From an uncultured Thermoplasmata archaeon (GTDB taxonomy: Archaea; Thermoplasmatota; Thermoplasmata; SG8-5): a stretch of 64,000 nucleotides of DNA. The position numbers and the translations under genes were made by a program. Of this stretch, positions 16,823 to 54,035 are shown one piece after another (the stretch's first letter is position 1; the number at the start of each line of letters is the position of its first letter). Below the pieces are notes generated by a model. That model was not told where the DNA came from. It searched no databases and saw only the letters and a list, made by a program, of their open reading frames with translations. The stretch lies in contig CAYHBA010000001.1 in NCBI GenBank assembly GCA_964354755.1, positions 224,009 through 288,008 on the forward strand, written 5' to 3'.

Positions 16823-16855
16823 GTTATAGACCTAAAACTATATTTTTGCCCCATC
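16823..16855. other. attL (B-O-P') of the integrated element
   Basis: tatagacctAAAACTATATttttgccccatc. The core AAAACTATAT is identical to the one at attR. The ttttgccccatc arm is the exact reverse complement of the attR arm gatggggcaaaa. Confidence 0.65.
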
Positions 16856-17076
16856 AAGGTATCTGGCTCGGCTCGAAAAGGTGCCGTACTCCGCAATTAT
16901 CCCGAAATCTATAGAATGGCACAGAAGCAGCATGCAAGACGCATAATTGAGTTTTACAGCAGCGAAAGCGCTGAATCCCCAACCGACCGCGAGACCGATT
17001 TTACTCAATTTCATTTCCATGACGTTGACGGGGGTGCAGGATAATCAGTCAAACGACGCGGAAACACTCGCCTGGG

Positions 17077-17232
17077 TTTTGTGTGTGTGCGGGGGTTGGG
17101 GCAACCCAGCTCAGCAAGGGTAAATCCGCACCAATCGACGACCAACTTAGAGGATACGCTGCTGACGCAGAAAAAGTTGGCTGGCCAGGCCTGTCGATAG
17201 GGTCAATCCGGAGTAATAGCACACACACAAAA
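17077..17232. repeat. Long-range inverted repeat at the provirus left end
   Basis: ttttgtgtgtgtgc (17077-17090) pairs with gcacacacacaaaa (17219-17232). The ~130-nt interior contains further short hairpins (ggggttggggcaaccc). Confidence 0.7.
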
Positions 17233-17311
17233 TTCATCAAGTTACAGGGAGACATAAAGGAAGCGCACAAAACTCCCGCCGATAACACAAAACTCGAACG
17301 GAGATGGGAAA

Positions 17312-17617
17312 ATGAAACAAAGTAGACAGAAATCGAATCTAAGGGAACGCTACGAGACAGTAGCCAACGCAATCAGAAAGACATGGCCAGCAGAGGCCAT
17401 AATCCCTGTAAGTGCAATCAGATTGCTGATGGAGCGCCTCGACGTGCACATGTGCGACGAGCGCACCCAGAACAAGAATCTTAATCGACTCATGAGCAGC
17501 CAGGTTTTCGGCGATGCCGTCCTGGAGCGCGTCGATAGCGGCAAGATGAAGGTTCTTTCGAGGACACAACTCACCATCGAGGACAGGTGCACGATAGTTG
17601 AGTTGGTGCAGCAATGA
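17312..17617 (+). CDS. Hypothetical provirus protein
   Basis: Track ORF of 101 aa, first gene rightwards of the left-end hairpin. Confidence 0.4.
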   Translation: MKQSRQKSNLRERYETVANAIRKTWPAEAIIPVSAIRLLMERLDVHMCDERTQNKNLNRLMSSQVFGDAVLERVDSGKMKVLSRTQLTIEDRCTIVELVQQ

Positions 17618-17808
17618 GAGCGGGCTACAGACGGATGAAGACCTGCCCGGAATGCAAAAGCTCGAAAGTGTCCATGGCCAATGGGGTATTTCGTTGCGGG
17701 GCCTGTGGATATTCTAATTGCCTGCCAAATGCAGATAATTCAAGGTTGGAGTTCAGAACATATAGGAGGAAGCAATTTGGCAAAGAAAGAGTCGATAAAA
17801 TACCATGA
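17614..17808 (+). CDS. Small zinc-ribbon protein
   Basis: CPEC...CGAC four-cysteine motif. Overlaps the next gene start, so either may be truncated. Confidence 0.3.
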   Translation: MRAGYRRMKTCPECKSSKVSMANGVFRCGACGYSNCLPNADNSRLEFRTYRRKQFGKERVDKIP

Positions 17809-18247
17809 AACCCTGATAATCGGGCTGAGTCAGGAAATTGCGGACCTGATGATGAAGGGCGGCATCGATGTCGTGGAGTTCAAGCTGCATTGTACTGATT
17901 TATCTCTGGTGGTTCTGACCTGCATATCTTCCCGCGTGAAGAAGGCAGACCATCAGGATCTTGTCAAGATGCTCAAGAAAGCCGGGCGCACCTATATCAC
18001 GCTGTTTCTTTCGGATGCCCAGATTCCAACGCTGATGGCCATCAGCGCAGATGTCGGTGGCATATCTGGCTCGTATCGTTGCCATCATGAAGGGATATTT
18101 GTCACGTATGAAGGAAAGACATTCAACATTCTGCTGAAGTTCGTGCATGAGAAAGTTGGCGCCAAGTTGCTGTTGAGCCAGAGACTTCAAGACGCGCTGG
18201 CTGAAAAGAATGGCGTCATCGAACGACAGGCCGCGACAATGGGATAA
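17777..18247 (+). CDS. Hypothetical protein immediately upstream of the large terminase, positional candidate for a small terminase subunit
   Basis: TTG start with a GGAGGA RBS 6 nt upstream. Ends 4 nt before the terminase start. No recognisable motifs. Confidence 0.35.
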   Translation: MAKKESIKYHETLIIGLSQEIADLMMKGGIDVVEFKLHCTDLSLVVLTCISSRVKKADHQDLVKMLKKAGRTYITLFLSDAQIPTLMAISADVGGISGSYRCHHEGIFVTYEGKTFNILLKFVHEKVGAKLLLSQRLQDALAEKNGVIERQAATMG

Positions 18248-18251
18248 TTGT

Positions 18252-19916
18252 ATGACTAACAATGCGCTCCTGAAAGCGCTTGTCAATCTCGAGAAGAGCG
18301 ACAACGAACGAACCCTCGCCCTCCGGAATGCAGTCACCTGGGCGATTAAATATGGCATTGTGCCGAGAGGACCCGAGGCAGGAAAGAAGTTCTCCTTCGC
18401 TGGCCGGCCATGGATGGTCGAACCGTATCTGGTATTGTCCCAGCCCCATGGCCGCGCCGTATTCGTGAAGGCTCGCCAGCTGGAGTTCTCGACCATGGCA
18501 ATCAACGTCGAGCACTACTGGGCGGACAAGCGGCCGTATACGGCCTGCGCCCATGTCTTCCCCACTGCCAAGCAGATGAACAAATTCTATGAGGAACGAT
18601 TAACGGTGATCTACCGCAAAGGCTCCAGATTCTTTGAAATGCTGGCCAACATGAAAGCCGATGGCATGGAAGTTCTGAACCGGAAGATGCACCTCTTCCG
18701 GAACAGCAGCTATTATTCCATGGAGTTCACGGTCGGCGAGAACGGGGGGAAATCCGAAGGTCTCAGGTCCCCAGCGCTGGACGTTCTGGCCTGCGATGAG
18801 CGCGCGGATTTCCCAGCTGATATTTCTCCAGTTCTGACGGAAGCTCTGAGCCACAGTGATATAAAAGTCCAGTTCGACCTGGGAACCCCGACCTACAACG
18901 ATACAGAGCTGGACAAGATGTGGAAGCTCAGCACTATGGAGGAATGGAAAGTTCATTGCAAGTCATGCGATCGCAAGCAAAATCTTACCATGGACAACCT
19001 CATGGCCAATGAATACGGGGAATATTTCAAAGGTTGCATAAATTGCCGTGCGGAGCTGGACACGACAATCGGCTCCTGGGTCGCCTTCAATCCGGAGGGA
19101 TTCTACCGAGGATTCCACCTCAACCAAATCGTAGCGCCCTGGGTATCCGCAAAGGAAATCCTGCAGAAAAAAGCAGAATACCTGCCCCGACGATTCGCAA
19201 ACGAGGTTATGGGCATGGCCTTTGTTGGGGATGAAAAGCTCCGCTTCAGAGCCAAGGTCATGGCCCGCGCCGATACCACAGGAGAATACCGACCGACAGT
19301 GATTTACGGAAATACCGTGGTAATCGGAGTCGATCACGGAAACTCGACCCGATGGATCGCAATATCCCGAAAAGAAGATGGGAAGACAGTCTGGCTTGAC
19401 ACTGGGGAGATCGACGATGTCGATATCAACAATCATGCGCTGAAGATCGCGGAGTTGGCGTATGGCTACGAGAGAAACAGCGTTCGCGTCGCCCTCATGC
19501 TCGATAGCGGTTATGGAAAGGCGCAGAACCAGAAGCTGATGAAGTTGTTCCCGCACCGGGCCTTTGCGGTCTTTTACGGCGGGGAGAAGATGACCCGCCC
19601 TGCATGGCAGGACAAACCCCTGGAACAACACGTCACAATCGAGCATACCAGTCTCTGCGAGAATGCCGAGCAATACCTGAACGCTGGAAACTTTGTCGTG
19701 CCTTTCGGGCAGGGAGGCATAGACTCGACGCGCTGGTCAAGTCTTCTTGATGAGTTCGACGCTGTGCGAGTTGAAGAAGAGGAGATAAAAACCGGGGGAA
19801 AGAAGCGGGTCTTCGTGACCAAACATGGGCACGGCTACATGGCCATGGCCTACGCCTTGCTCTGGTTCGAGAGAACCGGATTCAACCGGGAGCTGAGAAA
19901 GCCGAGGTCCGCATGA
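18252..19916 (+). CDS. Terminase large subunit (lambda GpA-like family)
   Basis: FAGRPWMVEPY...AVFVKARQLEFST resembles the GpA N-terminal ATPase region, and the length and position fit. Internal ATG at 18252 chosen over the track start 18210. Confidence 0.65.
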   Translation: MTNNALLKALVNLEKSDNERTLALRNAVTWAIKYGIVPRGPEAGKKFSFAGRPWMVEPYLVLSQPHGRAVFVKARQLEFSTMAINVEHYWADKRPYTACAHVFPTAKQMNKFYEERLTVIYRKGSRFFEMLANMKADGMEVLNRKMHLFRNSSYYSMEFTVGENGGKSEGLRSPALDVLACDERADFPADISPVLTEALSHSDIKVQFDLGTPTYNDTELDKMWKLSTMEEWKVHCKSCDRKQNLTMDNLMANEYGEYFKGCINCRAELDTTIGSWVAFNPEGFYRGFHLNQIVAPWVSAKEILQKKAEYLPRRFANEVMGMAFVGDEKLRFRAKVMARADTTGEYRPTVIYGNTVVIGVDHGNSTRWIAISRKEDGKTVWLDTGEIDDVDINNHALKIAELAYGYERNSVRVALMLDSGYGKAQNQKLMKLFPHRAFAVFYGGEKMTRPAWQDKPLEQHVTIEHTSLCENAEQYLNAGNFVVPFGQGGIDSTRWSSLLDEFDAVRVEEEEIKTGGKKRVFVTKHGHGYMAMAYALLWFERTGFNRELRKPRSA

Positions 19917-20215
19917 CCACCGAGGAAGAGATCAGAGAGCTGGAGAAGGTCCTGGCGGAGCTGAGGCGAAAGCCTTCTGACCGCCCGCAGGGAAACGCAA
20001 CTTCCTCGATTGATATCCTCCGATACCTTATCGGCCGGCCGGAGAAGCTCCGGGCAACGACCAAGATAATGAAGGCCTTCAACCTCTCTTACTCCATGTT
20101 CGTGGAGAGAATGTACATGTCCCTGGGCAAGGGCTGGATCGAGAAGGAGAGGAAAAACAACAGGGTGGTCTGGTCGGTCACGGAGGAGGGGAGGAAGATA
20201 TTGAGGGAGGAGTGA
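19913..20215 (+). CDS. Small winged-helix DNA-binding protein
   Basis: 100 aa with a wHTH-like IDILRYLIGRPEKLRATTKIMKAFNLSYSMFVERMYMSLGKGWIEKE segment. Confidence 0.4.
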   Translation: MTTEEEIRELEKVLAELRRKPSDRPQGNATSSIDILRYLIGRPEKLRATTKIMKAFNLSYSMFVERMYMSLGKGWIEKERKNNRVVWSVTEEGRKILREE

Positions 20216-22068
20216 AGTGGCAATCAATGCAACGGAGTTCCGACTTTTCGAATTATTTTATATATCCTCTGAATTATGCAGGTTCTATGAAAGCGGGAGC
20301 ATTTCCATTTAGTGTACTAAAAATGGAGGGGAGACTTACAATACCATTTTTCCAGCGAGGCTATATCTGGATAGAAGACAATTGGCAAGATTTACTCGAA
20401 GACATGGAAAGCGCAAACAAGAAACATTTCTGGGGATCATTAATTTTCAAACATGAAAAGGAAACAACCGGTGAACCAAAGAAAATTATCATCATCGACG
20501 GTCAACAAAGATTAACGACGATGAGTATAATGTTAAAGGCATTATACGATACATTCTCGCCGGGTATTAAGACAAGCACAAAATCAGTAGTAGAAGACTT
20601 GTTGTTATACAGGGTAAGTTCTACATCTCCAAAGTTTCAAGTCAGAATCCAACACTCACGTATTGACAGAAAATCCTATAAAAAGGTTATAACGTCTGGA
20701 TTAGGAGAAACAGAATTAACGGATGCTGAAATCAAAGATAATAATCCAATAATGAATTGCTACAGGTGGTATACTGAGAAACTTTCATCCAAAACCGAAA
20801 GTGCCCGGGAATTTATCTTCAACACCCTTACAAATATTGATAACAAAATGCTGGTCATCATCGACCTTGATGAAGATGATAATGAACAGACAATTTTTGA
20901 TACAATCAATACGGCAGGGGTAAGATTAACAAGTACTGACATTATAAAAAACAAACTCTTCCAAAAAGTCGTGGAATTATTCGATGAAGACCAGGCTATT
21001 GAGTATTATAAGAATACATGGGAGAATTGTTTTTTAAAGGATGAAGAAGCGAATGCTTATTGGCTTGGTGAGAGTTCAGAAGGAAGGATGACAAGGACCA
21101 ATAGCGATATTTTGCTCCATTCGGTAGCGGTTATCCAAGGATTTTACAATCCAGTGGATGATAAGCTCGGGGATTTACCCACCCGTTACAAGGAAAAAAT
21201 CGATGGATATGATTCATCAACCAAAGACAAACTCATTGAATTCATCAAAGAAATCAAAGCCTTTGCGACCATTTATAGGATGGATGTACCTGTATTCGAT
21301 AAAGACTTCCTATTGACATACACCAGGCAAGAGGAAAGATTGTTCCATATCCTCCATGAATTGAATATATCAACATTTCATCCTTACATACTATACATCC
21401 TGAAGAAATATCCCGCTGGGAGTGCGGAGAGAGCTAAAGGATTATACGACCTCGAAAAATTCGTCATGAGGAATATGATGGCGAAGAATCAAACAAGGAG
21501 CTATATCAATTATTGTAAAGAATTCATAGACGATCCATCTGAGATTATGAGGAAATATGCAAAGATAACTGATGCTGAAGTGGCTGCAGGTCTGAGGGAC
21601 ATCAGGACTAATGGAACCGCATCATTGATATTGTTCTGGATAGAGTTAAAACGGCTTGAAGACCCGCACGATGTCAAAGAGCTGCATTACCATTATTCCC
21701 TTGAACACATAATGCCTCAGAAGTGGGAGCCACATTGGACGGATCTTCCAACAACTCATACAGATGGCACGCCATTATCCGTTGACGAAATAGCTGAGGC
21801 CAAAGCTGAACGTTACAAACGCGTGTACTGGCTTGGCAATATGACTCTTCTCAGAACCAGGTTGAACTCTTCACTTAGGAATCATACCTATGAAAGAAAA
21901 ATGAATGGAGAGGGAAAGAAGAAAGGAATCAAGGATTATGCCTCTCTGACAATCACACGTGCAGACCTCGTAGAGCCTTTCCAAACGCTAGGGCAAACAA
22001 AATGGAATGAATCGAAGATAGAGGGACGAACTAGGAAACTTGAAGAGGAAATCAAGGCATTGTGGTAA
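20212..22068 (+). CDS. GmrSD-family type IV restriction endonuclease (DUF262 ParB-like NTPase + DUF1524 His-Me nuclease)
   Basis: Hallmark IIDGQQRLTT motif in the N-terminal domain. C-terminal HYHYSLEHIMPQKW matches the DUF1524 EHI.P nuclease motif. The gene is AT-rich. Confidence 0.8.
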   Translation: MKWQSMQRSSDFSNYFIYPLNYAGSMKAGAFPFSVLKMEGRLTIPFFQRGYIWIEDNWQDLLEDMESANKKHFWGSLIFKHEKETTGEPKKIIIIDGQQRLTTMSIMLKALYDTFSPGIKTSTKSVVEDLLLYRVSSTSPKFQVRIQHSRIDRKSYKKVITSGLGETELTDAEIKDNNPIMNCYRWYTEKLSSKTESAREFIFNTLTNIDNKMLVIIDLDEDDNEQTIFDTINTAGVRLTSTDIIKNKLFQKVVELFDEDQAIEYYKNTWENCFLKDEEANAYWLGESSEGRMTRTNSDILLHSVAVIQGFYNPVDDKLGDLPTRYKEKIDGYDSSTKDKLIEFIKEIKAFATIYRMDVPVFDKDFLLTYTRQEERLFHILHELNISTFHPYILYILKKYPAGSAERAKGLYDLEKFVMRNMMAKNQTRSYINYCKEFIDDPSEIMRKYAKITDAEVAAGLRDIRTNGTASLILFWIELKRLEDPHDVKELHYHYSLEHIMPQKWEPHWTDLPTTHTDGTPLSVDEIAEAKAERYKRVYWLGNMTLLRTRLNSSLRNHTYERKMNGEGKKKGIKDYASLTITRADLVEPFQTLGQTKWNESKIEGRTRKLEEEIKALW

Positions 22069-22091
22069 ACAAGAATGCAACCTAGCTGAAA

Positions 22092-22745
22092 TCACGAAAA
22101 TTTCGTCTCCATCATCCTATCGATTTCACCCTGCCCATATTTATTGATAACATAATCCATGTATTCTTCGATTCCCATCATTCTTGCGAGCTTATGTGAC
22201 CATCTTTTAAACTGTAGGTCTGAATAATAGAACATAGTATTCTTATCAAATGGCTCCACAATCCGGATTATGTATCCATCTTCGACAAATCCCACTCTAC
22301 GAATAGTCATCAACTCCCGAATTCGAACTCTCTTCCACCTGTCGGAATTATCAAAGTCGAGGACTATCTGCCCATTTATTAGTTCGAGGGGTATTTGGCG
22401 TGAGTTGGCAAGATTCTTGAAGTCGGAATCAATCTTCTCCATCAGTTTCTGAGTCATAACCCAGCATTTCTGATTGCCGTGGTATTTTCTTATCCATCTG
22501 ATTCGAGAGTTCATCAGGGCTTCGTATCTGATTTTAGGAATTTTTCCTATATTTTTACGAAGTGGAGCTGAGCCTGTTCTGTCTGTGATGTGGTTGGATA
22601 TAAAATCTCCATCATCCATTGTTATCAAATGAATGTCTCCCACACCCTCAAGGCAGAGTCCAAAAACCATTCCGTCCTTGGTTTGTCCATAAAACATAAT
22701 GCCTTTGTCCAGAGCAGTAATCTTAACGGTTTTCTTTTTCCCCAT
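22092..22745 (-). CDS. Hypothetical protein (AT-rich island)
   Basis: 217-aa ORF with no recognisable motif. Confidence 0.4.
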   Translation of the reverse strand: MGKKKTVKITALDKGIMFYGQTKDGMVFGLCLEGVGDIHLITMDDGDFISNHITDRTGSAPLRKNIGKIPKIRYEALMNSRIRWIRKYHGNQKCWVMTQKLMEKIDSDFKNLANSRQIPLELINGQIVLDFDNSDRWKRVRIRELMTIRRVGFVEDGYIIRIVEPFDKNTMFYYSDLQFKRWSHKLARMMGIEEYMDYVINKYGQGEIDRMMETKFS

Positions 22746-22805
22746 CTCAAGCCACGCTCACTTGACCGTTCATCAATCCTCGATGCCATTGCTGATAATT
22801 AAAGG

Positions 22806-23126
22806 TCACCCTTCAAAATAATTCCGTAATCTCTGCTCAATGACAGTGCAACCAAAATTGATAGGTTTATCAGTGATTTTCACAGTCACGATATTACCAG
22901 AGACACTATATGAACCAGATACCTTTCCTGAAAAACATCCACTCTGCGTATCCCCGCTAACTATTACACCGTTCCTCGCTGCTTCTTGTCTTACGTGTCC
23001 CAGAATTAAGTTTAAATCCATCCTGACTCGAATTGTAAATGTTGGACACCCGGACATAATAATAGTTAGGATTCCGGGCGATAAATAAATTGTGGTAAAA
23101 AAAAATAGGTCAGTGAGGGTTACCAA
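22806..23126 (-). CDS. Hypothetical protein
   Basis: 106-aa ORF. An alternative ORF exists on the opposite strand, so coding status is weak. Confidence 0.25.
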   Translation of the reverse strand: MVTLTDLFFFTTIYLSPGILTIIMSGCPTFTIRVRMDLNLILGHVRQEAARNGVIVSGDTQSGCFSGKVSGSYSVSGNIVTVKITDKPINFGCTVIEQRLRNYFEG

Positions 23127-23194
23127 TTAGACATCCAATTAACTTTTCTAATTGGACAGGAAAATATTTACAGTGTCAAGTCCATCCACGCCAT

Positions 23195-23548
23195 GTGAGA
23201 ATCAAGATATATGTCGGTACGGCCGCAGTGGGCGAAGGCGAACGGACGACCAGCACAGGCTACCATAGCACGCGTCTGACTTATTCCAAATTATATGACT
23301 GCCTCGATTCCACCGCCATGCATTCCGGGGATATGGAGGACGAATGCATCAAGACATTACATCTTGTAAGCCGGTTCGCAGAGGAGCATGGCCTGGAATT
23401 GAAGATGTACGATGTTTCGCACGATTATGCCGCTTTCAGGGCCTGGCTCGACAGAGTGAAATCCATACCCACCGTAATCATCGGAAAAAAGAAGTTCGAG
23501 GGTGTTCCGGAAATCGAGGAACTTGAAAAAGCCCTAAAAACCAATTAG
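23195..23548 (+). CDS. Thioredoxin/glutaredoxin-fold protein without a CxxC motif
   Basis: The C-terminal FRAWLDRVKSIPTVIIGKKKFEGVPEIEELEKAL is glutaredoxin-like. It is paralogous to 46247..46612 (FFKGVKILPTVIIGKHIL). The true start may be an internal ATG. Confidence 0.45.
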   Translation: MRIKIYVGTAAVGEGERTTSTGYHSTRLTYSKLYDCLDSTAMHSGDMEDECIKTLHLVSRFAEEHGLELKMYDVSHDYAAFRAWLDRVKSIPTVIIGKKKFEGVPEIEELEKALKTN

Positions 23549-23562
23549 AATTTATAAAAAAA

Positions 23563-23935
23563 GATAGGCAGGGATTTAGTCATTTCTGACATGGTTGGAG
23601 AGAGATTCCCTGCCCAAAGTGGGGAAGAGTTAAGCGTGATATTGCCCACATAAGCCTCAGCTTCCCGAAAAGGATAATAGTGCGGGGGGGATTTATAGAT
23701 ATAGATTGAAATTATGGAAATGAGAACCATAAATGAGATGAAATAACAAAACGGTAGAAAAAGAGAGGGCAGGGCATTTGGCCATTTCTGGCAATACATT
23801 GGGTAAAGACACCCTGCCCAAATTTTGGGGAAGAGTTGATCGTGAATATTCTGCCCACATAAATGCCTGCTTCCCGAAAAGGATAATAGGGCGGAGGGAT
23901 TTATAGGTTAGGGTTAGGTTGAAATTATGGTAGAA
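23563..23935. repeat. Duplicated ~160-bp structured leader
   Basis: Units at ~23563-23720 and ~23766-23935 share ggcaggg..catttctg.ca...ccctgcccaaa..tggggaagagtt...tgcccacataa...cttcccgaaaaggataatag..gg..gggatttatag...ttgaaattatgg. The second copy ends at the ATG of gene 23927. The first ends in a 9-codon mini-ORF. Confidence 0.75.
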
Positions 23936-24442
23936 GAAAAGGCAAAAGAGAAGAAAAAAGAAAATAATCCGGAGTTTGTTTTAACTGCCGCGACTATGAA
24001 TGCTATTGCGGATATAGTCAAATCACAAAAACGCACAGAAGATTTGGTTAGAGCTACAATGGCATCACAAAGTACATTGGCAACATTAAATCAAATCGCT
24101 CAAAATTCATTAGCAATACAGAGATTCATGGCCCCAACAATGAGCATCTTGGCCTCCCATTTAAATGAAAAAAAAGCAATGGAAAATTTACATCAACAAA
24201 TGCAATCTATAGCATGCTACGAAAAAACGTTATCTTCCCCCTCAATTGGATTAATAAAACCTGAAATGGCGATAATTGCCACAAATCAGCAAAAGATTGA
24301 TGAACGGTTGGATAGAATTGAAAAATTAGTAAAAAGAGTAATTCAATTACTTGGCGAAACCGAACTTTCTGAGGAACAAAAGAAACAACTCGAAAAATTA
24401 ATGAAAGAAATCAATGAAGAAACCGATAAAGCATACAGTTGA
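23927..24442 (+). CDS. Coiled-coil hypothetical protein
   Basis: 171 aa, K/E-rich with heptad character. Confidence 0.45.
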   Translation: MVEEKAKEKKKENNPEFVLTAATMNAIADIVKSQKRTEDLVRATMASQSTLATLNQIAQNSLAIQRFMAPTMSILASHLNEKKAMENLHQQMQSIACYEKTLSSPSIGLIKPEMAIIATNQQKIDERLDRIEKLVKRVIQLLGETELSEEQKKQLEKLMKEINEETDKAYS

Positions 24443-24942
24443 TTGGTAATTGAGGTGATGTTATTACTGGCAGACCAAGAAGACCAAGCCGAAAGGAAAT
24501 TGAAAAACAATCGGAAAAAGCCCGTAGAAGAGTTAAAACCGAACCAATAGAATAATGGAAATAAATAGCCATTATACTCTTAATCAGGCAACGGTTTCCT
24601 TTGTTGATAGTTGCATACGACTTTAGTAAGCAATGCAGGGAAAAGAAAGGCAAAATAAAAGCCGCCGCCCCTACCCTTTCAGCGTCATCCAGCGCAGTAT
24701 CAATAACGCCATTATTATCGCGTTCAGAAAAATTCCTGTGTTATAGCCAATACAAAAATTATAGACCATTCCGATCAAACAAATGAGAAGCCCGCTGCTC
24801 AGGATGGCTTTTATCACTCTTCCGTTCATCAATGCTCAATGCTATTGCTGATAGTTAAGGATTGGTAAAGAAAAGACTTGCCCGGAAGGGATAATTCGGA
24901 CCTAGGATCCAGAATGAAGGGGCGACTACGAAGTTTAGTGCA

Positions 24943-25293
24943 ATGACATTATGTAATAAACTGTTAAAGCATGTTAAATGTATGTTAATCATCTTTAAAT
25001 CGTATCATAACTATTTACAGTTAATGGACGAATCATTAGAAATAATCAACTGGTTGAAAAGTGGAAAATATAGAGTTCCAATGCTAAACGAATTACTATC
25101 TCCTAAATCGCCATCTGAACTTGCTGGCATTCTAAATATAAATCGTGCCTCTGTTAGTAGGATAATAAAGGATCTAACTAGTAAAAAATTGATAGATTGC
25201 ACTGAATCTGGTGCCAAAACAAAGTTATGTATTATTAATGAAAAAGGCAAACACATAATAAAACTCTTTTATGATATCGTGGGTGGTGGATGA
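24943..25293 (+). CDS. Winged-HTH transcriptional regulator, possible restriction-modification controller
   Basis: SPSELAGILNINRASVSRIIKDLTSKKLID is HTH-like. It lies immediately upstream of, and overlaps, the putative endonuclease gene. Confidence 0.45.
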   Translation: MTLCNKLLKHVKCMLIIFKSYHNYLQLMDESLEIINWLKSGKYRVPMLNELLSPKSPSELAGILNINRASVSRIIKDLTSKKLIDCTESGAKTKLCIINEKGKHIIKLFYDIVGGG

Positions 25294-26050
25294 TATAAAT
25301 ATTTCATTTCTTAAAAAGGCAATGGTGAATAGACGGGTACCAAAACCCGCTTCAGGCACGTTGTCTGGACACGCTGCTGGAGAACCCTTTGATAAACTTG
25401 TTTATCAATTAATTAAAGAAAAATATCCTAATAAAACTTTTAGGCAATATGAATACTTAAATAAATTATACCTTGATCATCCCAAGGTAACAACTTACAA
25501 AGATAGGTATAGTTTAATTTCATCTCCTGCATTGAGACTTTTATTAAATCGAGGCGTTGGTGTCACTAAAAAATGGACCTCTACTAATCAACTGAAAGAA
25601 AAGCAAGATGATACAGCTGATACATTATTGATTTCTGGAAATTTCCATCATATTATTGATGTAAAAACACGAAATATAGACAAAAAGGCACTTGCACCAA
25701 ATATTATTTCTGCTAAAAAGTTAGCAGAGATGTCTTTAATAATGATTAAAGAAACGGATTTTGATAGTTTTAAAATAACATACGTAGGTGTCGATTGGGC
25801 CCTTGAGGGGGCTTATTTAGTTTGTAGTAAAACAACAATGAAAGATATATTTCAGGCAACTCCCTCTTCCTTGTATATAAATTGGTCTGCAGCCAATCAA
25901 ATCCAGTTCCATGTTGAAAAACTTGACCAAAGTTATAAAAAAGGAATTAAGACTTGGTGTAAAGAATATCTCGCTCATTATGTCGAATCTGCAAATCATC
26001 GAATGAAACACTTTCGTAAGAAATTTATTAAACCATTCGATATCGATTAG
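25271..26050 (+). CDS. Putative type II restriction endonuclease (PD-(D/E)xK candidate)
   Basis: ADTLLISGNFHHIIDVKTR has PD...(D/E)xK spacing. The gene is convergent with and abuts the methyltransferase gene. Confidence 0.45.
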   Translation: MISWVVDDINISFLKKAMVNRRVPKPASGTLSGHAAGEPFDKLVYQLIKEKYPNKTFRQYEYLNKLYLDHPKVTTYKDRYSLISSPALRLLLNRGVGVTKKWTSTNQLKEKQDDTADTLLISGNFHHIIDVKTRNIDKKALAPNIISAKKLAEMSLIMIKETDFDSFKITYVGVDWALEGAYLVCSKTTMKDIFQATPSSLYINWSAANQIQFHVEKLDQSYKKGIKTWCKEYLAHYVESANHRMKHFRKKFIKPFDID

Positions 26051-42146: not shown

Positions 42147-42154
42147 GTGATGAC

Positions 42155-44748: not shown

Positions 44749-44989
44749 CGTTATTCTGGGCCAAGTATATCGGCTATATTAATGTGATGTTGAACCAATT
44801 TCAATACGTTGAATGATGTGATTTTTCACGACCTTGGGATGCAAAAGCGTATAATTATAATGTTTCAATTATATATTCGAGCCAGCCATCTATGATTCAA
44901 ACTTCGTCTGATGCAACAACGGACGGCAGAAGGCACATACAACGGAACCGCTGGCCCTCCCCCCACCCGCACCGCGCTGGAACCCCTTT

Positions 44990-45335
44990 TCCTATCATTC
45001 CAGTCTTTCGTTCATGCCTGCTTCCGGTCTGGCCACCTTTTCTCCCGTGAATCCGGTGAGAAAAGTTGTCTCAAACAAACATCGGCACCTGTGCCTCGGG
45101 TGTAAAGGAAGCAGAGGCGAGCATGAACGACCAGCCAGTTTGGCTTGGATATTCCCGCGAATATCGGGAATGGAAAGCCTGGAACGAGTCGGTGAAGGAG
45201 CTGGTTTGAATGGCTATGGAATCGATTAGCTGTGATGGCATGCCAGAGGTCTTTCCGGGGGATTTCCCCCGGAAGCCACCACAGCCTTTCCATAATCCAT
45301 TCAACACGCAAGCCAGCTTCGAGGTGATTCAATGA
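44990..45335. repeat. Repeat R1, copy a (copy b at ~46728-47060): structured leader plus two conserved tiny ORFs
   Basis: The first ~230 bp are near-identical between copies (ccagtctttcgttcatgc...ggaagcagaggcgagcatgaacgacc...gagctggtttgaatggc). The second small ORF and the rest of the unit diverge, as detailed in the R1 finding. Confidence 0.85.
45123..45209 (+). CDS. Candidate 28-aa Trp-rich peptide (MNDQPVWLGYSREYREWKAWNESVKELV)
   Basis: Conserved in copy b (MNDRPIWLSYSREYREWKAWNESVKELV) with two synonymous and three conservative changes. Preceded by two hairpins and GGAAGCAGAGG. Its stop is immediately followed by the ATG of a second small ORF (45210-45335). Confidence 0.35.
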   Translation: MNDQPVWLGYSREYREWKAWNESVKELV

Positions 45336-45604: not shown

Positions 45605-45939
45605 GCCAAGTGACGCTCGGCCAGCTCGCAGATGTTACGCGGGGGAATCGTGACATCTCCCTGCAAGTCGATGATATCCTGATCCGGCGGGTGTCCGGCT
45701 CCATAGAGAAACTTGGCGAACCTGTGATAATTGGCGACAGTCGGACACCCTGGCCGGGGAATCCGGACACCTTCATTCATATTCGAGTGTCCAGGAGAGA
45801 TGTACTATTCCCCCGCTATCTGTACTATCTTCTCCAGCACCTGAACCAGAGCGGCCAGTTCCAGCGCATCGCGCAGGGTTCGGTCCAGCAGTTCATCCGC
45901 GTCCGTGACGTCGAGGCGATCGGGCTGAGGCCGGGGTGA
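45598..45939 (+). pseudogene. Fragment of a type I restriction-modification specificity subunit (HsdS half)
   Basis: VTLGQLADVTRGN...DILIRRVSG...LFPRYLYYLLQHLNQSGQFQRIAQGSVQQFIRVRDVEAIGL matches the HsdS target-recognition-domain pattern. No hsdM or hsdR nearby. A shorter copy of the 3' end occurs at ~47170-47255. Confidence 0.6.
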
Positions 45940-46190
45940 CGGCGCCCGACTGCTCGGGCGGCACCAATAAGCGCTGGCTTTGCTGCCAGAGACGAACGCA
46001 AAGCCAGGCGATTAAAGGTGCCGCCCTCGCACGACGATGGTCGTGCGCGCGTTGTTAACATACTCCTTACATACGATATGCAATTATATAGCTACAAGCC
46101 TCGTCTGTAAGGACGGGGTTATGTTAACTAATACTAACGGATATAAACTATATATACCTGTTATCGGATAATGGGAACACGTGACTTGGC
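45846..46190. repeat. Repeat R2, copy a (copy b at ~47170-47530): HsdS 3' fragment, hairpin element, inverted-repeat module and promoter
   Basis: Long direct repeat. It contains a nested hairpin (45955-46027), a 75-bp element with GTTAACAT/ATGTTAAC termini (46054-46128), a TATA-like box (aaactatatatacc) and a conserved leader (ggataatgggaacacgtgacttg). Each copy precedes a different gene. Confidence 0.85.
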
Positions 46191-46612: not shown

Positions 46613-47548
46613 AAATAGATACAAAAAGTAGGCTGCAACATCCGCCTTTTGCTATACTTAACAACCATACTTAACATCACCGCTAGCCCGCCCCCTCCTC
46701 CGCCCTGCACTGGCCCTCCTCTACCCCCAGTCTTTCGTTCATGCCCTGCTTCCGTCCAGCCACCCTTTCTCCCGTGAATCCGGTGAGAAAAGTTGTCTCA
46801 AACAAACATCGGCACCTGTGCCTCGGGTGTAAAGGAAGCAGAGGCGAGCATGAACGACCGGCCAATTTGGCTTAGCTATTCCCGCGAGTATCGGGAATGG
46901 AAAGCCTGGAACGAGTCGGTAAAGGAGCTGGTTTGAATGGCAATGGAACCAGTCGACTCCCTTGATTGTGATTGGCCGGGGAGTGTTCCCTGGCCATTCC
47001 CGCCTGAAAAGGCGGTCTCCTCTGGGGGGCGGGCGCGGTATTGCCTAACGTGAGTCTGGCGCGCCCACGCGCCAGTGTTGTACCGAGCGAGCAGGTGAGG
47101 GCGAGTTTTCTTGTTTACTGAATATTTTTCTTTTGGAGCCCGAGCAAGCGCAGCGAGGTCAAAAGAAAAATACTCGCGGCCAGTTCCAGCGCATCGCCCA
47201 GGGGTCGGTCCAGCGATTTATTCGGGTTCGGGATGTCGAGGCGATCGGGCTGATTCTGGCTTGACATCCAGCTACACTCGGGCGGTGCCAATAAACGCTG
47301 GCTTAGCTGCTAGAGACGAACGCAAAGCCAGGCGATTAAAGGCACCGCCCTCGCACGCCAGGCAAGGCTGGTCGCGCGTGCGCATTGTTAACATACTCCT
47401 TACATACGATATGCAATTATATAGCTACAAGCCTCGTCTGTAAGGACGGGGTTATGTTAACTGATATTAACTGATATTAACTGATATAACCTATATATAT
47501 CTGATATCGGATAATGGGAACACGTGACTTGCGAGGGAGTGAATAGCT

Positions 47549-48478
47549 TTGAAGGAGATGGGCCTGACTGGCATCGATATTAGAAACTATGATAAAACGA
47601 TAGATATCGACAATTTTGTCCGGTTTTACAATCATGCTCATTCGGATTATCCATCACATAATACTCTAACTGCTGACATCGCGCAGCAATATATTTTTGG
47701 AAAACCAGGGTATGATTCTCAATCACATTTTCTAGCAATCAAGGATTCAGAGATCATCGGAAGTGTCAAAGGGGAGATATTTGCTGGAAAAAGAGGAATT
47801 ATTGGAATGATAATTAGTCCAGAACACCGTATGCTTGGGATTGAAGATGTCCTTTACAAGCTGGTTATGAATTACTATCGTCAGAAAGGATTGGATGAAG
47901 CCGGAGTCCATGTTGATTCGTCATTTCCAAAAATGATTGATTTCTACAAGTCACATGGATTTACCATTTGGAAAATATCATACCAGATGTCATGTAAATT
48001 AAAGCAATCTATGAAAACTAGTTCTAAAATGGCAGCAGGTTATCATATTGGACCATCCAATCAAAATGAGATTGATAAGGTAAGGAATGTCTTAGCAATT
48101 GGTTTTGAAAATGAGCATGTAGAGGAAATAATTGGTGAATTTGACCGACTTCTCCAAGAAAAGGGTTTTGATATAAGTGGAATAATTGTGGCAAGGAAAA
48201 GCAACGATGTCATTGGACTGATATTTAATTTCATCCATCCAGCGATGCCGGATAGAGGATTTGTTACATGGATTGCTGTGATTCCATCAGAGAGAAACAA
48301 GGGTGTGGGAAAATCCCTATTATCATCGGGATTGTCTTGGATGAAAGAGAAAGGCGCTTTGACTGTGGAATTGAATGTCGATTTAAAGAATCCCAGCGCA
48401 TTAAAATTATATCAAGACTGTGGGTTTGAAGTAGTATCTGAAACTAATATTATGCAAAAGGCCCATCTCCGTTTGTAA
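47549..48478 (+). CDS. GNAT-family N-acetyltransferase (two GNAT-like halves)
   Basis: Acetyl-CoA-binding-like motifs (KRGIIGMIISPEHRMLGIED and RGFVTWIAVIPSERNKGVGKSLL). AT-rich and driven by the R2 copy b promoter. Confidence 0.65.
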   Translation: MKEMGLTGIDIRNYDKTIDIDNFVRFYNHAHSDYPSHNTLTADIAQQYIFGKPGYDSQSHFLAIKDSEIIGSVKGEIFAGKRGIIGMIISPEHRMLGIEDVLYKLVMNYYRQKGLDEAGVHVDSSFPKMIDFYKSHGFTIWKISYQMSCKLKQSMKTSSKMAAGYHIGPSNQNEIDKVRNVLAIGFENEHVEEIIGEFDRLLQEKGFDISGIIVARKSNDVIGLIFNFIHPAMPDRGFVTWIAVIPSERNKGVGKSLLSSGLSWMKEKGALTVELNVDLKNPSALKLYQDCGFEVVSETNIMQKAHLRL

Positions 48479-48524: not shown

Positions 48525-48730
48525 CCGCGTGGATGCCTCGCCGGAGGATTGCGTCCTTGCACTGCCGCTCATCGAGCAATCCGCACGGATGCGAGCCACC
48601 GTTTTCCCAACGTTACGGCGAAGCAGCCACGAGTACAACGAAGGGACGGGGAGTGTGAACGAAAGGCTTATTATCTGCCTTTCGCATTCACTTGGGGCAA
48701 GTGGCTACTGGCTAAGGCTGTGTGCCCGTT
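48525..48730. repeat. Repeats R_A/R_B, copy 1 (further copies at ~49500-49670 and ~50620-50800)
   Basis: R_A (gaatgcctcgccggag...caagccacc...ttacggcgaagcagc.acgagtacaacg.agg..gggag) and R_B (acgaaag.cttatta...gcattcacttgg...ctgtgccc) recur around the nucleotidyltransferase and membrane-protein genes. The last copy ends in a long palindrome (ggggcggggagcgggtttaatgca...tgcattaaacccgcacaccgcccc). Confidence 0.8.
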
Positions 48731-49520
48731 TCAAATCAATTAAATATTTCTCTGCTACTTCAAGCCATTTGATTTTATCATCTTTTGAGATCACTTGTTG
48801 TCTACGTAGCTTTAATGAATAGTGCACAATGTGTTTTTCATTGTTTTTGAATGCCATTGCTATTTCAGAGTAGCCATTGACTGACTTGTTATCACTCACA
48901 AGATGCAGTTCAATATCAGCGATGTAAAAGATTACCTTAATAAAATCTTTGAATGTGAAGTCAGGGCAAATTTGGTCTTTTTCTTTAAATGTATCTTTAT
49001 GCTCATAAAATATATCAATATGATATTCCAATTCGTTTCTCAGAGTCGCTGGCTTGATTGAAAATTCATTAAAGTTTAACTGTTTTCCATGTACTAATTT
49101 CGCTTTCTTAAGGAAGTTAATGAATACCGGCAATTCGATATTTTCCATTATACTCCCTTTGGATTCCCCACCGAAAAATTCGTCATAACTCATCATGCCA
49201 ATGTCAATTTTGTGAGCAGAGCGAATTTTATTATTCAGAATTTCGTTCAATTGCGTCTCATTAGTAAAATCATAACTGGACTTCATTACACCGATAAAAT
49301 CGATATCGCTGTTATTTATCATGTCTTTTGTGATAAAAGAACCAATAACATAAAGAGAGATTAAATTATCCCCAGTATGCTTTAATATCGTATTTTTAAT
49401 TTCATTAATGAGTTTTTCATCATTCATAAATACCAAATAGATTTCAAGATTATATAGATGTCTCTTAACAAGGGCATGCAACCGAATGATAATTAAGGGA
49501 GCCACCTCCGCCGTGACCAC
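48705..49520 (-). CDS. Polymerase-beta-superfamily nucleotidyltransferase (ANT/LinB-like or defence-type)
   Basis: GSFITKDMINNSDIDF matches the minimal nucleotidyltransferase GS...DxD signature. AT-rich. The true start is probably the internal MNDEKLINE near 49440. Confidence 0.55.
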   Translation of the reverse strand: MVTAEVAPLIIIRLHALVKRHLYNLEIYLVFMNDEKLINEIKNTILKHTGDNLISLYVIGSFITKDMINNSDIDFIGVMKSSYDFTNETQLNEILNNKIRSAHKIDIGMMSYDEFFGGESKGSIMENIELPVFINFLKKAKLVHGKQLNFNEFSIKPATLRNELEYHIDIFYEHKDTFKEKDQICPDFTFKDFIKVIFYIADIELHLVSDNKSVNGYSEIAMAFKNNEKHIVHYSLKLRRQQVISKDDKIKWLEVAEKYLIDLKRAHSLSQ

Positions 49521-49714: not shown

Positions 49715-50614
49715 ATGATTATTAAATTCGATATTAACTATATTTTGAAGGTCGTTTTAAAGAGCTTCATTTGTTCAATTTTGCTAATTGTCGGCATGAT
49801 AGTTGGGGGAATTGTGGCAATAACCTTAGGACTGACTCAACCAACAATGCCAGCATCAATTGATACAAATTTAACAATTATTCTAATGATACCTGCGGGA
49901 ATGATAATCTCTATAGTCCTTGGAGAGCTTTTTAAGAAATTAAATCAAGGTTTCCTAGAGCGATTTGTTTGCATATTTCTTTTCAACTACATTATCTATT
50001 TTTTGCTCCAAGTCTTTGAATCGGTTATCTTTACTACAATGATGAATTTAAATTTCGGGATTGTAATGGATATTTTTCCTTCCCTGTTTATTTCGTTAGC
50101 GATAGCCAAAATGTGGAAACCCATCAAGGAAGACCGTAGCCTTAGAACTGAAGCCAAAAGTTACTTTGCTAAAAGAAAAACCTTGGACTGGACATGGAGA
50201 TTTGTATTGGCTTGGCTCGCATATGTACCTTTATATTACTTTATAGGTGTGGCAATTAGCCCGTGGGTTCTTCCATATTATAGTGATCATAGCTTGGAGT
50301 TAGGCATTATTCTTCCTGATGTATCTGAAATGATTGCCCTGCAGTTCATACGGAGTGCTTTTTTCCTTTTCGCAGCAATGCTAGTGATAATAATGTGGAA
50401 GGGAACCAAACAATCACTTCGGTTGTGGCTCGGTTTCTCAATTTTCGTACAAGTGGCTGTAATTCCATTAATCGTCGGACATTGGCTCCCAATCGGATTG
50501 AGAATACCACATGCTATTGAGTTGACTATCGACTCCTTCGTTCAAGCAATAATTTATGTGGGACTTTTATTTATTAACAATCCTAGTCCTAATAGTGTTG
50601 TATCCAAGAATTGA
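49715..50614 (+). CDS. Polytopic membrane protein (about 8 predicted TM)
   Basis: 299 aa, strongly hydrophobic and AT-rich. Divergent from the nucleotidyltransferase gene. Confidence 0.5.
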   Translation: MIIKFDINYILKVVLKSFICSILLIVGMIVGGIVAITLGLTQPTMPASIDTNLTIILMIPAGMIISIVLGELFKKLNQGFLERFVCIFLFNYIIYFLLQVFESVIFTTMMNLNFGIVMDIFPSLFISLAIAKMWKPIKEDRSLRTEAKSYFAKRKTLDWTWRFVLAWLAYVPLYYFIGVAISPWVLPYYSDHSLELGIILPDVSEMIALQFIRSAFFLFAAMLVIIMWKGTKQSLRLWLGFSIFVQVAVIPLIVGHWLPIGLRIPHAIELTIDSFVQAIIYVGLLFINNPSPNSVVSKN

Positions 50615-51392: not shown

Positions 51393-51397
51393 GACGG

Positions 51398-51680: not shown

Positions 51681-51821
51681 ATGGGAAAATTCAGAACGAT
51701 AAGTCTGCCTGGCGACCTTTACAAACAAATCGAAAAAAAGGTTAAAGAGGGAAATTACAACACTATTACCGAATTTGTCAAAGAGGCTATCAGGCTCAGA
51801 CTGGAAGCAATGAACGGGTAG
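51681..51821 (+). CDS. Ribbon-helix-helix protein, 46 aa, divergent paralog of the 51398..51571 gene
   Basis: MGKFRTISLPGDLYKQIEKKVKEGNYNTITEFVKEAIRLRLEAMNG. It shares EFVKEAIRLRLEA with the partner. The intergenic region carries the inverted repeat atcaatcac...gtgattgat. Confidence 0.5.
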   Translation: MGKFRTISLPGDLYKQIEKKVKEGNYNTITEFVKEAIRLRLEAMNG

Positions 51822-51840
51822 AGAAAGGAGCCGTGGAGCC

Positions 51841-52461
51841 ATGGTGTTGCAAACAACAGCGCTGGGGGGCGCAGGGAATGATCGCATGAATGTTGAGGAA
51901 ATAGTCGAAAATATTATCGGCCTGACCACAGCGATCAAGGAAATCAGCGAGACAATCCAGGAACGGGCGCAACCATATGCAGACCGCTTGAAGGCTCTCC
52001 AGGAAGAGATGGACCGGGATCTGTCGGAATTGAAGGCGCAGTCCGAGAAAATGAAACTGGAACTGGCCGAAGACAAGACTCTATTGATAGAGCACTGGCC
52101 GGTGGACAGCGGCAGGATAGAAACGCGGGGATGGACAATCGACAGGAAGGAACGGAAGAGCGTGGAGATTGTTGATGAATTTTCATTGATGGATACCTTA
52201 CTGGAGGTGCTGCCTCAAAATAAGATGCCCTGCAACATAGCCTGGAACAAAACCAAGCTGGCCAAATTGATTGATGATGGCGTGATACCAGAAGAACAAG
52301 CCCGTTCAACCGTGACTATCAGCATCGCCATTACTCCGCCGGCATCCGCAGATGACGAAGAGACTGCCAACGAGGAACGCGCAGATAGAGACCGACTTGT
52401 TCAGGTGGACAGAGCCGCCAGAGGCCATTACAGCACATTGTCGGGGGCCGGAAACCCATGA
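51841..52461 (+). CDS. Hypothetical protein (coiled-coil N-terminus)
   Basis: 206 aa with an RBS (gagaaaggag) ahead of the ATG. The overlapping minus-strand ORF 51642..52076 is low-complexity and probably spurious. Confidence 0.4.
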   Translation: MVLQTTALGGAGNDRMNVEEIVENIIGLTTAIKEISETIQERAQPYADRLKALQEEMDRDLSELKAQSEKMKLELAEDKTLLIEHWPVDSGRIETRGWTIDRKERKSVEIVDEFSLMDTLLEVLPQNKMPCNIAWNKTKLAKLIDDGVIPEEQARSTVTISIAITPPASADDEETANEERADRDRLVQVDRAARGHYSTLSGAGNP

Positions 52462-52688
52462 CCCTCAACAACCCCAAGGGCACGAACGACCGAGGCCGAC
52501 TGATAACCTATACAGTCCATGATCTCGCAACCGGGCTCGAGTTGTTCTACTTCCAGGGAAAACGATTTTCCGCCCAAGCTGCGGCACGCGAGGCCATCAG
52601 CCGGAAGATAGTGCTGCCGGTCGAGGTCCGCTGGATAACCGCCAACCGTTGGGGATTCAATACCCAGCATCGGATGGTGAGCGCGTGA
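52458..52688 (+). CDS. Small hypothetical protein
   Basis: 76 aa, translationally coupled to its neighbours. Confidence 0.3.
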   Translation: MTLNNPKGTNDRGRLITYTVHDLATGLELFYFQGKRFSAQAAAREAISRKIVLPVEVRWITANRWGFNTQHRMVSA

Positions 52689-52918
52689 CCACTGAGCCTC
52701 GCCGCGGCCCGTTCTCCCTCAACCAAGCTCTATGGATACAGGATTGTCAAATCTGCCCCTATTGCGGCTGGAGACGCGGGGACATGCACCCGATACTTCT
52801 CAAACCTATATGCGCCCACCAGGTCCTTGCCGGCGAGGTCATCCGGAGTCACATGCGGGCTGCTGAGAGTAATGTCATTTTCATTACAGCCGACAAACTG
52901 GCGGAGGCAATGCTGTGA
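52649..52918 (+). CDS. Small zinc-finger protein
   Basis: CQICPYCGW...C..H motif. Confidence 0.3.
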   Translation: MGIQYPASDGERVTTEPRRGPFSLNQALWIQDCQICPYCGWRRGDMHPILLKPICAHQVLAGEVIRSHMRAAESNVIFITADKLAEAML

Positions 52919-52960
52919 ACGGCTGCGGCGAGGGAAACGGTACATGCACCAGCACAACAA

Positions 52961-54007
52961 ATGAGCCCCTCGAAGCCGCTCAGCTGGGGTATAATCCCCA
53001 ATCGCTGCAGCCAAATTATTTATCGAAGCAATCGATACGGAGGGAGGCAGATGCCAAGACAGGAAACGTATCTGTGCCGAATAGATCAATGGGAAGCAAA
53101 ACTGAACCAGAGCAGGAAGTCGCCATACACGGTCGCCAGCTATACCGCGGCGGCCAGGTTGGCGCGCAGGATACTGATGGAGAACGGAATCCAGACAGCC
53201 CCCAAGAAACTGTCGCAGGAGGATATCGAACTCATTTATCGGAACCTGCACAACAGCGCCTACAAGATGGGCGTGAAGGACTTCCTCAGGTTCGTGGAAA
53301 ACCCGTATGTGGAACGCGCGGACACCGGCCCGGCTCCGAAGTGCATGAACAAGGCGGACTGGTTGGACAGGGACACGGACGAAGACCGAATAGTCTGGGA
53401 GACGGCGATGAACTCGCCGCTGTTCGAGAAGGTCATTGTCCACTTCGAACTACACCTGGGAATGAGGCGGGGCGGCTGCAAGCGGCTGCTGATGTCCTAC
53501 TACTTGGGCAGACACATGATAGTCCTGGAAAAAGGACGGGAAGGCGGAAAGTTCCGAACCATCCCAGTACACCCGTTCACCAAGGACATCATGCGGGAAG
53601 TGAAGGACTTCAGGGCGGACACCCTGGAGCCGCACGCTTTCAGGAACGGCCTGAAGGTCCCAGAAAAGGTCATCGCCTGGCCGAACCACCACAAGATAAC
53701 CACCCCCTCGGACAACACCCTGAATATACTGCTGAAGAACGTCAGCAGAAAGGCGGGGATAGAGTTCAGCCACCACACCCTGCGGAGGACCTGCGCCAGG
53801 AACCTCTACTTAGAGATGGTGGAACGGGGCAAGGTGAACCTAGCTGCGATACAGCGGTTCTTAGGCCACGAATCCATGGAAATGACCGTGAAATACTTGG
53901 GCATCAACATGGTCGACATGGAGGAGATGATGTCGATAGGCTCCCAAAGGTTCCAAAAACCGATAAATTCGCCGGACTGCACCGAAACGCCAGTAGCCAG
54001 CCTTTAG
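52961..54007 (+). CDS. Tyrosine recombinase/integrase
   Basis: Box I GMRRGGCKRL (Arg), HHTLRRTCARN (His-x-x-Arg), GHESMEMTVKYL (His...Tyr). The stop lies 1-2 bp before the attR arm. The start may be the internal ATG ~90 nt downstream. Confidence 0.8.
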   Translation: MSPSKPLSWGIIPNRCSQIIYRSNRYGGRQMPRQETYLCRIDQWEAKLNQSRKSPYTVASYTAAARLARRILMENGIQTAPKKLSQEDIELIYRNLHNSAYKMGVKDFLRFVENPYVERADTGPAPKCMNKADWLDRDTDEDRIVWETAMNSPLFEKVIVHFELHLGMRRGGCKRLLMSYYLGRHMIVLEKGREGGKFRTIPVHPFTKDIMREVKDFRADTLEPHAFRNGLKVPEKVIAWPNHHKITTPSDNTLNILLKNVSRKAGIEFSHHTLRRTCARNLYLEMVERGKVNLAAIQRFLGHESMEMTVKYLGINMVDMEEMMSIGSQRFQKPINSPDCTETPVASL

Positions 54008-54035
54008 ATGGGGCAAAACTATATATTCGGAATAT
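54007..54035. other. attR (P-O-B') of the integrated element
   Basis: gatggggcaaaaCTATATattcggaatat. The arm gatggggcaaaa is the exact inverse of the attL arm, and the core AAAACTATAT is shared. Confidence 0.65.

Follow-up and report, generated by a model that had tools for sequence, protein, structure and literature searches.

Attachment sites of a head-tailed provirus integrated at a promoter-like intergenic site in a Thermoplasmata chromosome

Several recombination systems are close to the one described below. Lambda Int, from a temperate tailed virus, uses imperfect core sites with a 7-bp overlap and a 15-bp common core, and is characterized by about 240 bp of arm-type sites bound by an extra N-terminal domain. 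Cre/loxP and Flp/FRT recombine identical sites without directionality control, the sites being composed of perfectly symmetric arms (13-8-13) and an asymmetric spacer that sets the direction. In the SSV-type (“suicidal”) integrases of archaeal viruses, attP is located within the int open reading frame (ORF), the gene is split, and the target is usually a tRNA. The dif sites of archaea and bacteria are 11-6-11 inverted repeats that are cut at the spacer edges (PMC8371274), while psiM100, an archaeal tailed prophage, occupies an intergenic AT-rich att site, with transcription of the adjacent gene reportedly unaffected (PMC8371274). Intergenic att sites of tailed archaeal proviruses are already known, and dyad-symmetric sites with a 6-bp spacer are the rule for Xer-like enzymes. 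Few proviruses are on record for this phylum: for Thermoplasmatota and Nanobdellota jointly, a 2026 survey counted 30 in about 7,300 genomes (PMC13573593). The alignment of attB across genomes for border mapping is now applied at scale (PMC13626063). Here we describe a stretch of 64 kb (the window) from contig CAYHBA010000001.1 of an uncultured Thermoplasmata archaeon, in which the segment 16844-54024 is, with high confidence, a 37.2-kb temperate head-tailed archaeal virus that was integrated into the Thermoplasmata chromosome by its own tyrosine integrase (Table 1). The host assignment is based on an archaeal LonB, of which the members of the 90% cluster are named Thermoplasmata or Thermoplasmatota.

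Both junctions were read from the window sequence. On the left side, the stop codon TGA of the DUF835-TPR gene (16820-16822) is followed by 11 nt (gttatagacct), the core AAAACTATAT, and then the viral arm TTTTGCCCCATC. On the right side, the integrase stop codon TAG (54005-54007) runs into the viral arm GATGGGGCAAAA, followed by CTATAT (54019-54024) and attcggaatat. The junction strings, the 10-bp core identical at both ends, and the 12-mers that are exact reverse complements of each other, all proposed in an initial annotation of this DNA, were confirmed, with one correction: the right arm does not begin 1-2 bp past the integrase stop codon but overlaps it by 1 nt, because its first G (54007) is the last base of TAG. 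The core occurs only twice in the 64 kb, at these two places (0.03 expected by chance), and the exact 12-mer also only twice, once per strand. The view that such a layout is unlikely by chance holds for the combination and fails for the inverted match by itself, since exact 12-bp inverted matches are common (246 pairs in the window), whereas 12-bp inverted arms with an identical 6-mer directly outside both were found in a single instance. The same layout of arms and 6-mer appeared in seven of 300 shuffled windows (mean 0.023). The extra AAAA match lowers the chance of this layout about 256-fold, and together with the position at the int stop codon makes a chance origin negligible. The attL junction was also recovered, with 100% identity, in L001 (ERR3804374) and L031 (ERR3804373), independent assemblies of two sequencing runs, and is not an artefact of the assembly of one dataset.

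The empty site was identified in related genomes by listing the 90% cluster members of the DUF835-TPR protein and examining their contigs. L020, a 361-kb contig from the Joint Genome Institute (JGI), is 92-93% identical to the window in nucleotide sequence (BLAST) and is syntenic with it from the peptidase and PmbA/TldD genes through aspartate kinase, ASD, HSD, and LonB. In this contig the TPR gene is followed by a 75-bp spacer, tgagttaaacctAAAACTATATattcgaaatgtcc, and by the orthologue of the zinc-ribbon/coiled-coil gene, and the spacer includes a single copy of the core (...acctAAAACTATATattcg...). L021, from a different sample, shows the same arrangement with one AAAACTATAT in the 75-bp spacer, and the 37,181-bp provirus is missing as one block from both loci. 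By BLAST alignment of L020 with the window, the left-hand match ends at 11315 of L020 and 16846 of the window, and the right-hand match starts at 11303 of L020 and 54015 of the window, the two alignments overlapping in the core only. The right-hand host alignment begins exactly at 54015 for L020, L021, and L022. The empty site of L020 and L021 is gagttaaacctAAAACTATATattcgaaatgtcc, as compared with the predicted attB, gttatagacctaaaactatatattcggaatatcc; 19 contiguous bases across the junction are identical, and the differences in the flanks are single-nucleotide polymorphisms or an indel. The uninterrupted attB that the initial annotation expected in relatives thus exists, with the same flanking genes adjacent to each other. 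The precise insertion relative to the uninterrupted site in relatives, the direct repeat at the borders, and the presence of large terminase, portal, HK97-fold capsid protein, and tail proteins altogether agree with a Caudoviricetes provirus.

More distant lineages retain the target. In L022, L023, and L024 (80-83% identity) the spacer is longer, yet acctAAAACTATATATTCGGAATA is kept at the same distance from the ATG, and a fourth lineage, L030, carries an empty site with a diverged core, ATGAGTATAT. TPR orthologues are located directly upstream of the coiled-coil gene in L020-L025 and L030. Upstream of attB, L022 (11310-11590) has an enlarged spacer of about 350 bp, as do L023 and L024, with three copies of a repeat of about 60 nt (cagaccctagaccctttatcccattttgaatacg...). 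A query of species-representative genomes with aspartate kinase for syntenic loci gave no relative, and a homologue search with the 643-aa coiled-coil protein gave nothing, its low-complexity words probably having saturated the candidates.

The arrangement of attP was deduced from two short metagenomic contigs, L002 and L003, which encode the two closest relatives of the integrase (45-50% identity). In both, the int stop codon is directly followed by an inverted repeat, GATGGTGTACAA-CCCGGT-TTGCACACC in L002 and GATGGTGTATTA-CCCGGT-TTACACACC in L003, which forms an imperfect 9-6-9 palindrome with a 6-bp spacer. Beyond the palindrome, both contigs continue into DNA homologous to the left end of the window provirus (16856-16960), and in L002 a homologue of the 101-aa first provirus gene comes next (BLASTP 42% identity, E 8e-31). 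This order of int, site, and left-end homologue is the layout of an unintegrated attP, and since the three are contiguous in the relatives, the window provirus corresponds to such a circle linearized at the palindrome. By joining the right and left ends, the attP of the window virus was reconstructed as GATGGGGCAAAACTATATTTTTGCCCCATC, a predicted perfect 12-6-12 palindrome. Both arms change together between the elements, at position 6 (G:G versus T:T), position 8 (C:C versus T:T), and position 10 (A:A, C:C, and T:T), as expected if the same protein reads both arms. In the relatives only about 9 bp of each arm are symmetric, so the three outermost base pairs of the window 12-mer may be dispensable for function; a functional arm of about 9 bp, rather than 12, is probable. 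One JGI sample (3300013133) holds both L002, the virus relative in attP form with spacer CCCGGT, and L030, the host relative with the empty site described above; their co-occurrence in one metagenome fits different att specificities within this virus group.

The integrase gene is intact. Its start is probably at 53051 because the homologues begin at M31. The protein scored 43.4 bits for PF00589 (cutoff 27.1) and matched PHROG 1 integrase at 3e-18. The residues R169/R170, K191, H272, R275, H303, and Y312 are invariant across eight homologues, and the catalytic residues match, in alignment, RHRH-Y of P. abyssi XerA (4a8e), the nearest solved structure and the sole one detectable by sequence (E 8e-6). 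The best NCBIfam match was also a XerA model (NF040815), but the score of 38.9 bits versus a cutoff of 220 indicates that the integrase is not a XerA orthologue. The family is rare, with 15 proteins at E 1e-5 in a word-indexed search of a collection of 5.8 billion proteins; nothing was found among IMG/VR proteins using the single sequence or a three-sequence alignment, and identity to deposited sequences was at most 25%. The distant relatives (32-36% identity) adjoin sequences resembling tRNA 3' ends (GGGTTCAAATC.. and ..GGGATTTGAACCC) at the loci L026/L027 (2096-9457 and 10900-10977) and L028 (10681-10760), and the intergenic palindromic site is therefore a trait of the close subfamily. In the L026/L027 element, a reverse transcriptase and a Lamassu-like LmuB_C gene are present, and one source record of this element bears the bacterial name Peribacteraceae.

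The target is intergenic and not a tRNA gene, as the initial annotation stated: the empty site lies in the 75-bp spacer between two protein genes, no tRNA gene was found in the window, and an Rfam scan of the window matched no RNA family. The proposed overlap with a TATA-like block upstream of the zinc-ribbon/coiled-coil gene was likewise borne out, the promoter role being the predicted part. In four of four lineages (window attR, L020, L022, and L030; 105 bp aligned) the core starts 66 nt before the coiled-coil ATG, TATATA inside the core is invariant, and conservation runs on to the start codon. This block is probably the promoter and 5' leader of the coiled-coil gene, of the archaeal BRE/TATA type. 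Upon integration only the bases upstream of AAAA are replaced. Since the core and all downstream sequence are kept at attR, the coiled-coil gene should retain its promoter, and probably does so. The core is not a common repeated motif in the window, where only one core-like element was found elsewhere, AACTATATA at 46146, upstream of a provirus gene.

These observations altogether are best explained by standard, textbook tyrosine-recombinase integration, of which the following steps are predicted. The circular viral attP would begin with the final base of the int stop codon and consist of two inverted arms (12 bp and perfect here, about 9 bp in the relatives) around the asymmetric 6-bp spacer CTATAT. 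Integrase monomers would bind both arms of attP and the weakly similar arms of attB, (a)cctAAAA-CTATAT-ATTCGgAA; attB is situated on the TATA-like block that is conserved 66 nt ahead of the coiled-coil gene. Cleavage by the integrase would then take place on either side of the 6-bp overlap, with strand exchange via a Holliday junction, leaving the hybrid sites attL and attR with the common 10-bp identity and the promoter retained at attR. Because the spacer is asymmetric, the orientation of insertion would be fixed.

As in XerA/dif and XerCD/dif, a tyrosine recombinase would act on two inverted arms around a 6-bp spacer, with cleavage at the spacer edges. The resemblance to XerA/dif (12-6-12 in the reconstructed attP, 9-6-9 in the relatives) is one of working and not of membership: the provirus integrase is virus-encoded, serves integration rather than dimer resolution, and pairs two unlike sites, an attP that is symmetric and an attB that is asymmetric and weakly similar to it; the two dif sites joined by Xer are identical. 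With psiM100 of Methanothermobacter wolfeii the provirus shares the temperate head-tailed archaeal virus type and the AT-rich intergenic site, but it differs in host phylum, its att sequences bear no relation to those of psiM100, and its capsid protein has no detectable similarity to any deposited phage or archaeal virus. The likeness to lambda includes int adjoining attP, an intergenic attB, inverted core-type sites flanking a short overlap, and a short common core of attP and attB; the predicted core of the window virus, however, is a perfect 12-6-12 palindrome, and arm-type sites are neither shown nor excluded. The predicted attP agrees with loxP and FRT in arm symmetry and spacer asymmetry, but here attP alone is symmetric. 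The SSV-type integrases are likewise tyrosine recombinases encoded by archaeal viruses for chromosomal integration, but the provirus keeps its int ORF whole, overlapping the arm by no more than the final base of the stop codon, and its target is intergenic.

Several points weigh against integration by the provirus's own enzyme as described above. The binding of the integrase, the positions of cleavage, and induction are predicted features, the archaeal promoter assignment is drawn from conservation and sequence resemblance only, and the covariation of the arms from three elements only. The excised attP of the window virus was not found: the exact 30-mer, for which the initial annotation had suggested a search of viral metagenomes, is absent from IMG/VR, as is the degenerate family-level attP pattern, and a search of IMG/VR for the conserved left-end motif gave nothing. 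The degenerate att pattern used for metagenomes and genomes gave chance matches in bacterial contigs only; its left part, GRSCW, fits the GACCT host flank only and is unable to match attP, attR, or the L020 attB, and attP was thus never searched in the collections scanned with this pattern. No excisionase was recognized in the provirus, and the low-GC cargo islands and internal duplications leave room for a provirus that may no longer be fully functional. A 23-nt match to attL in contig L006 was rejected as unrelated (GC 37%, no tblastx similarity).

The alternative that survives best is that the att sites are genuine relics of a provirus now defective, domesticated, or decaying, without excision or virion production. 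This is suggested by the two low-GC cargo regions, at 20-28 kb (between terminase and portal) and 46-51 kb, by the duplications, and by the lack of recognizable excisionase or replication genes; furthermore, no contig in attP form carries the exact first provirus gene, both contigs with that gene being in attL form. On the other hand, both att sites are perfect, the int ORF retains all catalytic residues, the terminase, portal, capsid, and tail ORFs are of full length, and capsid proteins at least 90% identical are encoded on several metagenome contigs. We consider decay unlikely, though it carries real weight among the alternatives, and the provirus may have kept the ability to excise.

The same ends can also be read as CTATAT-TTTTGCCCCATC...GATGGGGCAAAA-CTATAT, that is, as 12-bp terminal inverted repeats within a 6-bp target-site duplication generated by a transposase or casposase-like enzyme, and the single CTATAT in the empty site agrees with this. 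A tyrosine recombinase with a 6-bp overlap gives the same layout, however, and a catalytically complete one abuts the right end. In the relatives, the two ends meet at a 6-bp spacer directly past int, as in an attP. Target and element remain identical for 4 bp (AAAA) past the 6-mer, and the B' arm matches P' at six of 12 bases. Neither a DDE transposase nor Cas1 was detected in Pfam and PHROG scans of the larger ORFs; several ORFs (for example 35029-36522 and 49715-50614) are unannotated. Transposition is accordingly very improbable. Still less probable is insertion of a dif-mimicking, IMEX-like passenger by the chromosomal XerA of the host, an idea favored by the 11-6-11-like dif architecture of the predicted attP (PMC8371274) and by XerA being the nearest solved relative of the integrase. 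The element has its own recombinase, not a XerA orthologue, with attP at its stop codon; this linkage is kept in L002 and L003, where the arms differ along with the integrase, and attB is asymmetric, promoter-like, and intergenic. Dependence on host Xer is unlikely because the site is linked physically and evolutionarily to its own integrase and attB is not a dyad-symmetric dif. A chance pairing of motifs with the true borders elsewhere, for which only the abundance of inverted 12-mers speaks, is refuted by the empty-site alignments, which break exactly within the 10-bp core, and by the uniqueness of the combined layout and its rarity in shuffles.

Integration by the virus's own integrase is thus ordinary biology and not surprising, and the earlier reading of this region as a provirus bounded by attL and attR is correct. 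What is new is the specific virus and its integrase lineage, which are far from anything deposited. Base-pair-exact borders, attL, attR, attB, and a predicted attP are now given for a head-tailed provirus of Thermoplasmata, which supplies a simple, testable pair of recombinase and site and an example of integration into a promoter-like target, and which also bears restriction-type defence cargo. As a tentative and rather doubtful extension, the integrase lineage may be minimal and lox/dif-like, with the 30-bp dyad-symmetric attP being sufficient in the absence of arm-type sites, and may specialize in a conserved archaeal BRE/TATA block instead of a tRNA gene. If so, the host promoter would be restored at attR upon integration, while attL would gain a new outward-facing TATA element, and such an integrase would offer a compact tool for site-specific integration in Thermoplasmatota and other archaea.

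Table 1. Positions of the provirus, its attachment sites, and associated genes in the 64-kb window. The strand is shown by + or -, and a dot marks a feature listed with no direction.
Feature	Position	Strand	Evidence or remark
Host DUF835-TPR gene, left flank	15530-16822	+	Pfam DUF835 and TPR
attL (B-O-P')	16823-16855	+	Host arm; core AAAACTATAT at 16834-16843; viral arm TTTTGCCCCATC at 16844-16855
Head-tailed provirus, integrated	16844-54024	+	37,181 bp with one core copy counted
Short conserved region or 42-aa ORF (..QKQHARRIIEFYSS..)	16916-17044	+	Near attP'; kept after attP in L002 and L003
First clear provirus gene, 101 aa	17312-17617	+	Homologue after int and attP in L002
Large terminase subunit, gpA-type ATPase	18210-19916	+	Pfam PF05876, 6e-11
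Low-GC cargo island	20212-27835	.	31-43% GC; between terminase and portal genes
GmrSD-type type IV restriction enzyme	20212-22068		In low-GC island
Small CARF/CasR-like winged helix-turn-helix protein	24943-25293		In low-GC island
HincII-like type II endonuclease	25271-26050		In low-GC island
Eco57I-type methyltransferase	26051-27835	-	In low-GC island; partner of HincII-like endonuclease
Portal protein	28031-29467	+	Pfam PF06381, 2e-23
DUF2213 protein	29460-30521		
HK97-fold major capsid protein (encapsulin/linocin models)	31505-32497	+	Pfam PF04454, 6e-18; NCBIfam encap_f1, 8e-19, below cutoff
Minor tail protein	36762-37718	+	PHROG 290, 5e-20
Tail protein, 840 aa	38328-40850	+	PHROG 21962, 5e-5
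Aldehyde dehydrogenase, full length	43102-44748	-	PF00171, 2e-101; between tail module and regulatory region
GNAT acetyltransferase	47549-48478		Near aldehyde dehydrogenase
Pol-beta-type nucleotidyltransferase	48705-49520	-	Near aldehyde dehydrogenase
Tyrosine integrase, 318 aa	53051-54007	+	PF00589; ORF open from 52961, start M31
attR (P-O-B')	54007-54035	+	Viral arm GATGGGGCAAAA at 54007-54018; core AAAACTATAT at 54015-54024; host arm attcggaatat
Conserved block upstream of coiled-coil gene	54015-54080	+	Ungapped alignment of window, L020, L022, and L030
Host zinc-ribbon (CGIC...CITCG) coiled-coil gene, 643 aa, right flank	54081-56012	+	Translation

The provirus has a GC content of 48% versus 56% in the flanks and includes two markedly low-GC stretches. 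Two of its virion genes are distant from deposited ones: identity of the terminase to deposited phage terminases is at most 28%, and the capsid protein showed no detectable similarity to deposited phages and archaeal viruses and gave nothing against IMG/VR proteins. About 100 bp just inside attP' are conserved as DNA in three elements (window 16916-17044, L002 1150-1230, and L003 1330-1383); the region can be read as a short peptide (..Q.QHARRI.E.YSS..), and could be a small gene or accessory (arm-type) integrase binding sites. The genes of the low-GC island constitute defence cargo carried by the provirus, and the aldehyde dehydrogenase looks like a metabolic cargo gene.

A block duplicated within the provirus at 83-88% identity was detected at 45851-46188 and 47176-47531 (also 44947-45221 and 46679-46948). 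Each copy includes a hairpin of about 80 nt (45953-46033), and folding of the 111-nt stretch 45940-46050 gave a minimum free energy of -60.6 kcal/mol (z -5.0). Two compensatory base-pair changes are present in the stems of the copies (GGCACC...GGTGCC versus GGTGCC...GGCACC), and a TATA-like AAACTATATATA follows the hairpin, upstream of the next gene. No Rfam match was obtained for the hairpin even at E of 1 or below; a role as structured RNA or regulatory element is possible.

In the host part of the window, the long minus-strand ORF 1890-4241 consists of degenerate repeats of 66-69 nt (families D1-D5) and is probably the end of the giant NosD/beta-helix surface protein that L022 has at this position. 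About 15 kb to the left of the insertion, in the gap between two convergent genes, a 90-nt stretch of host DNA (1794-1880) is 88% identical, in inverted orientation, to 47088-47176 of the provirus. The host copy contains TTTTTCTTT...AAAGAAAAA and is terminator-like in appearance, and the stretch represents either a small element shared by host and virus or a trace of exchange between them.

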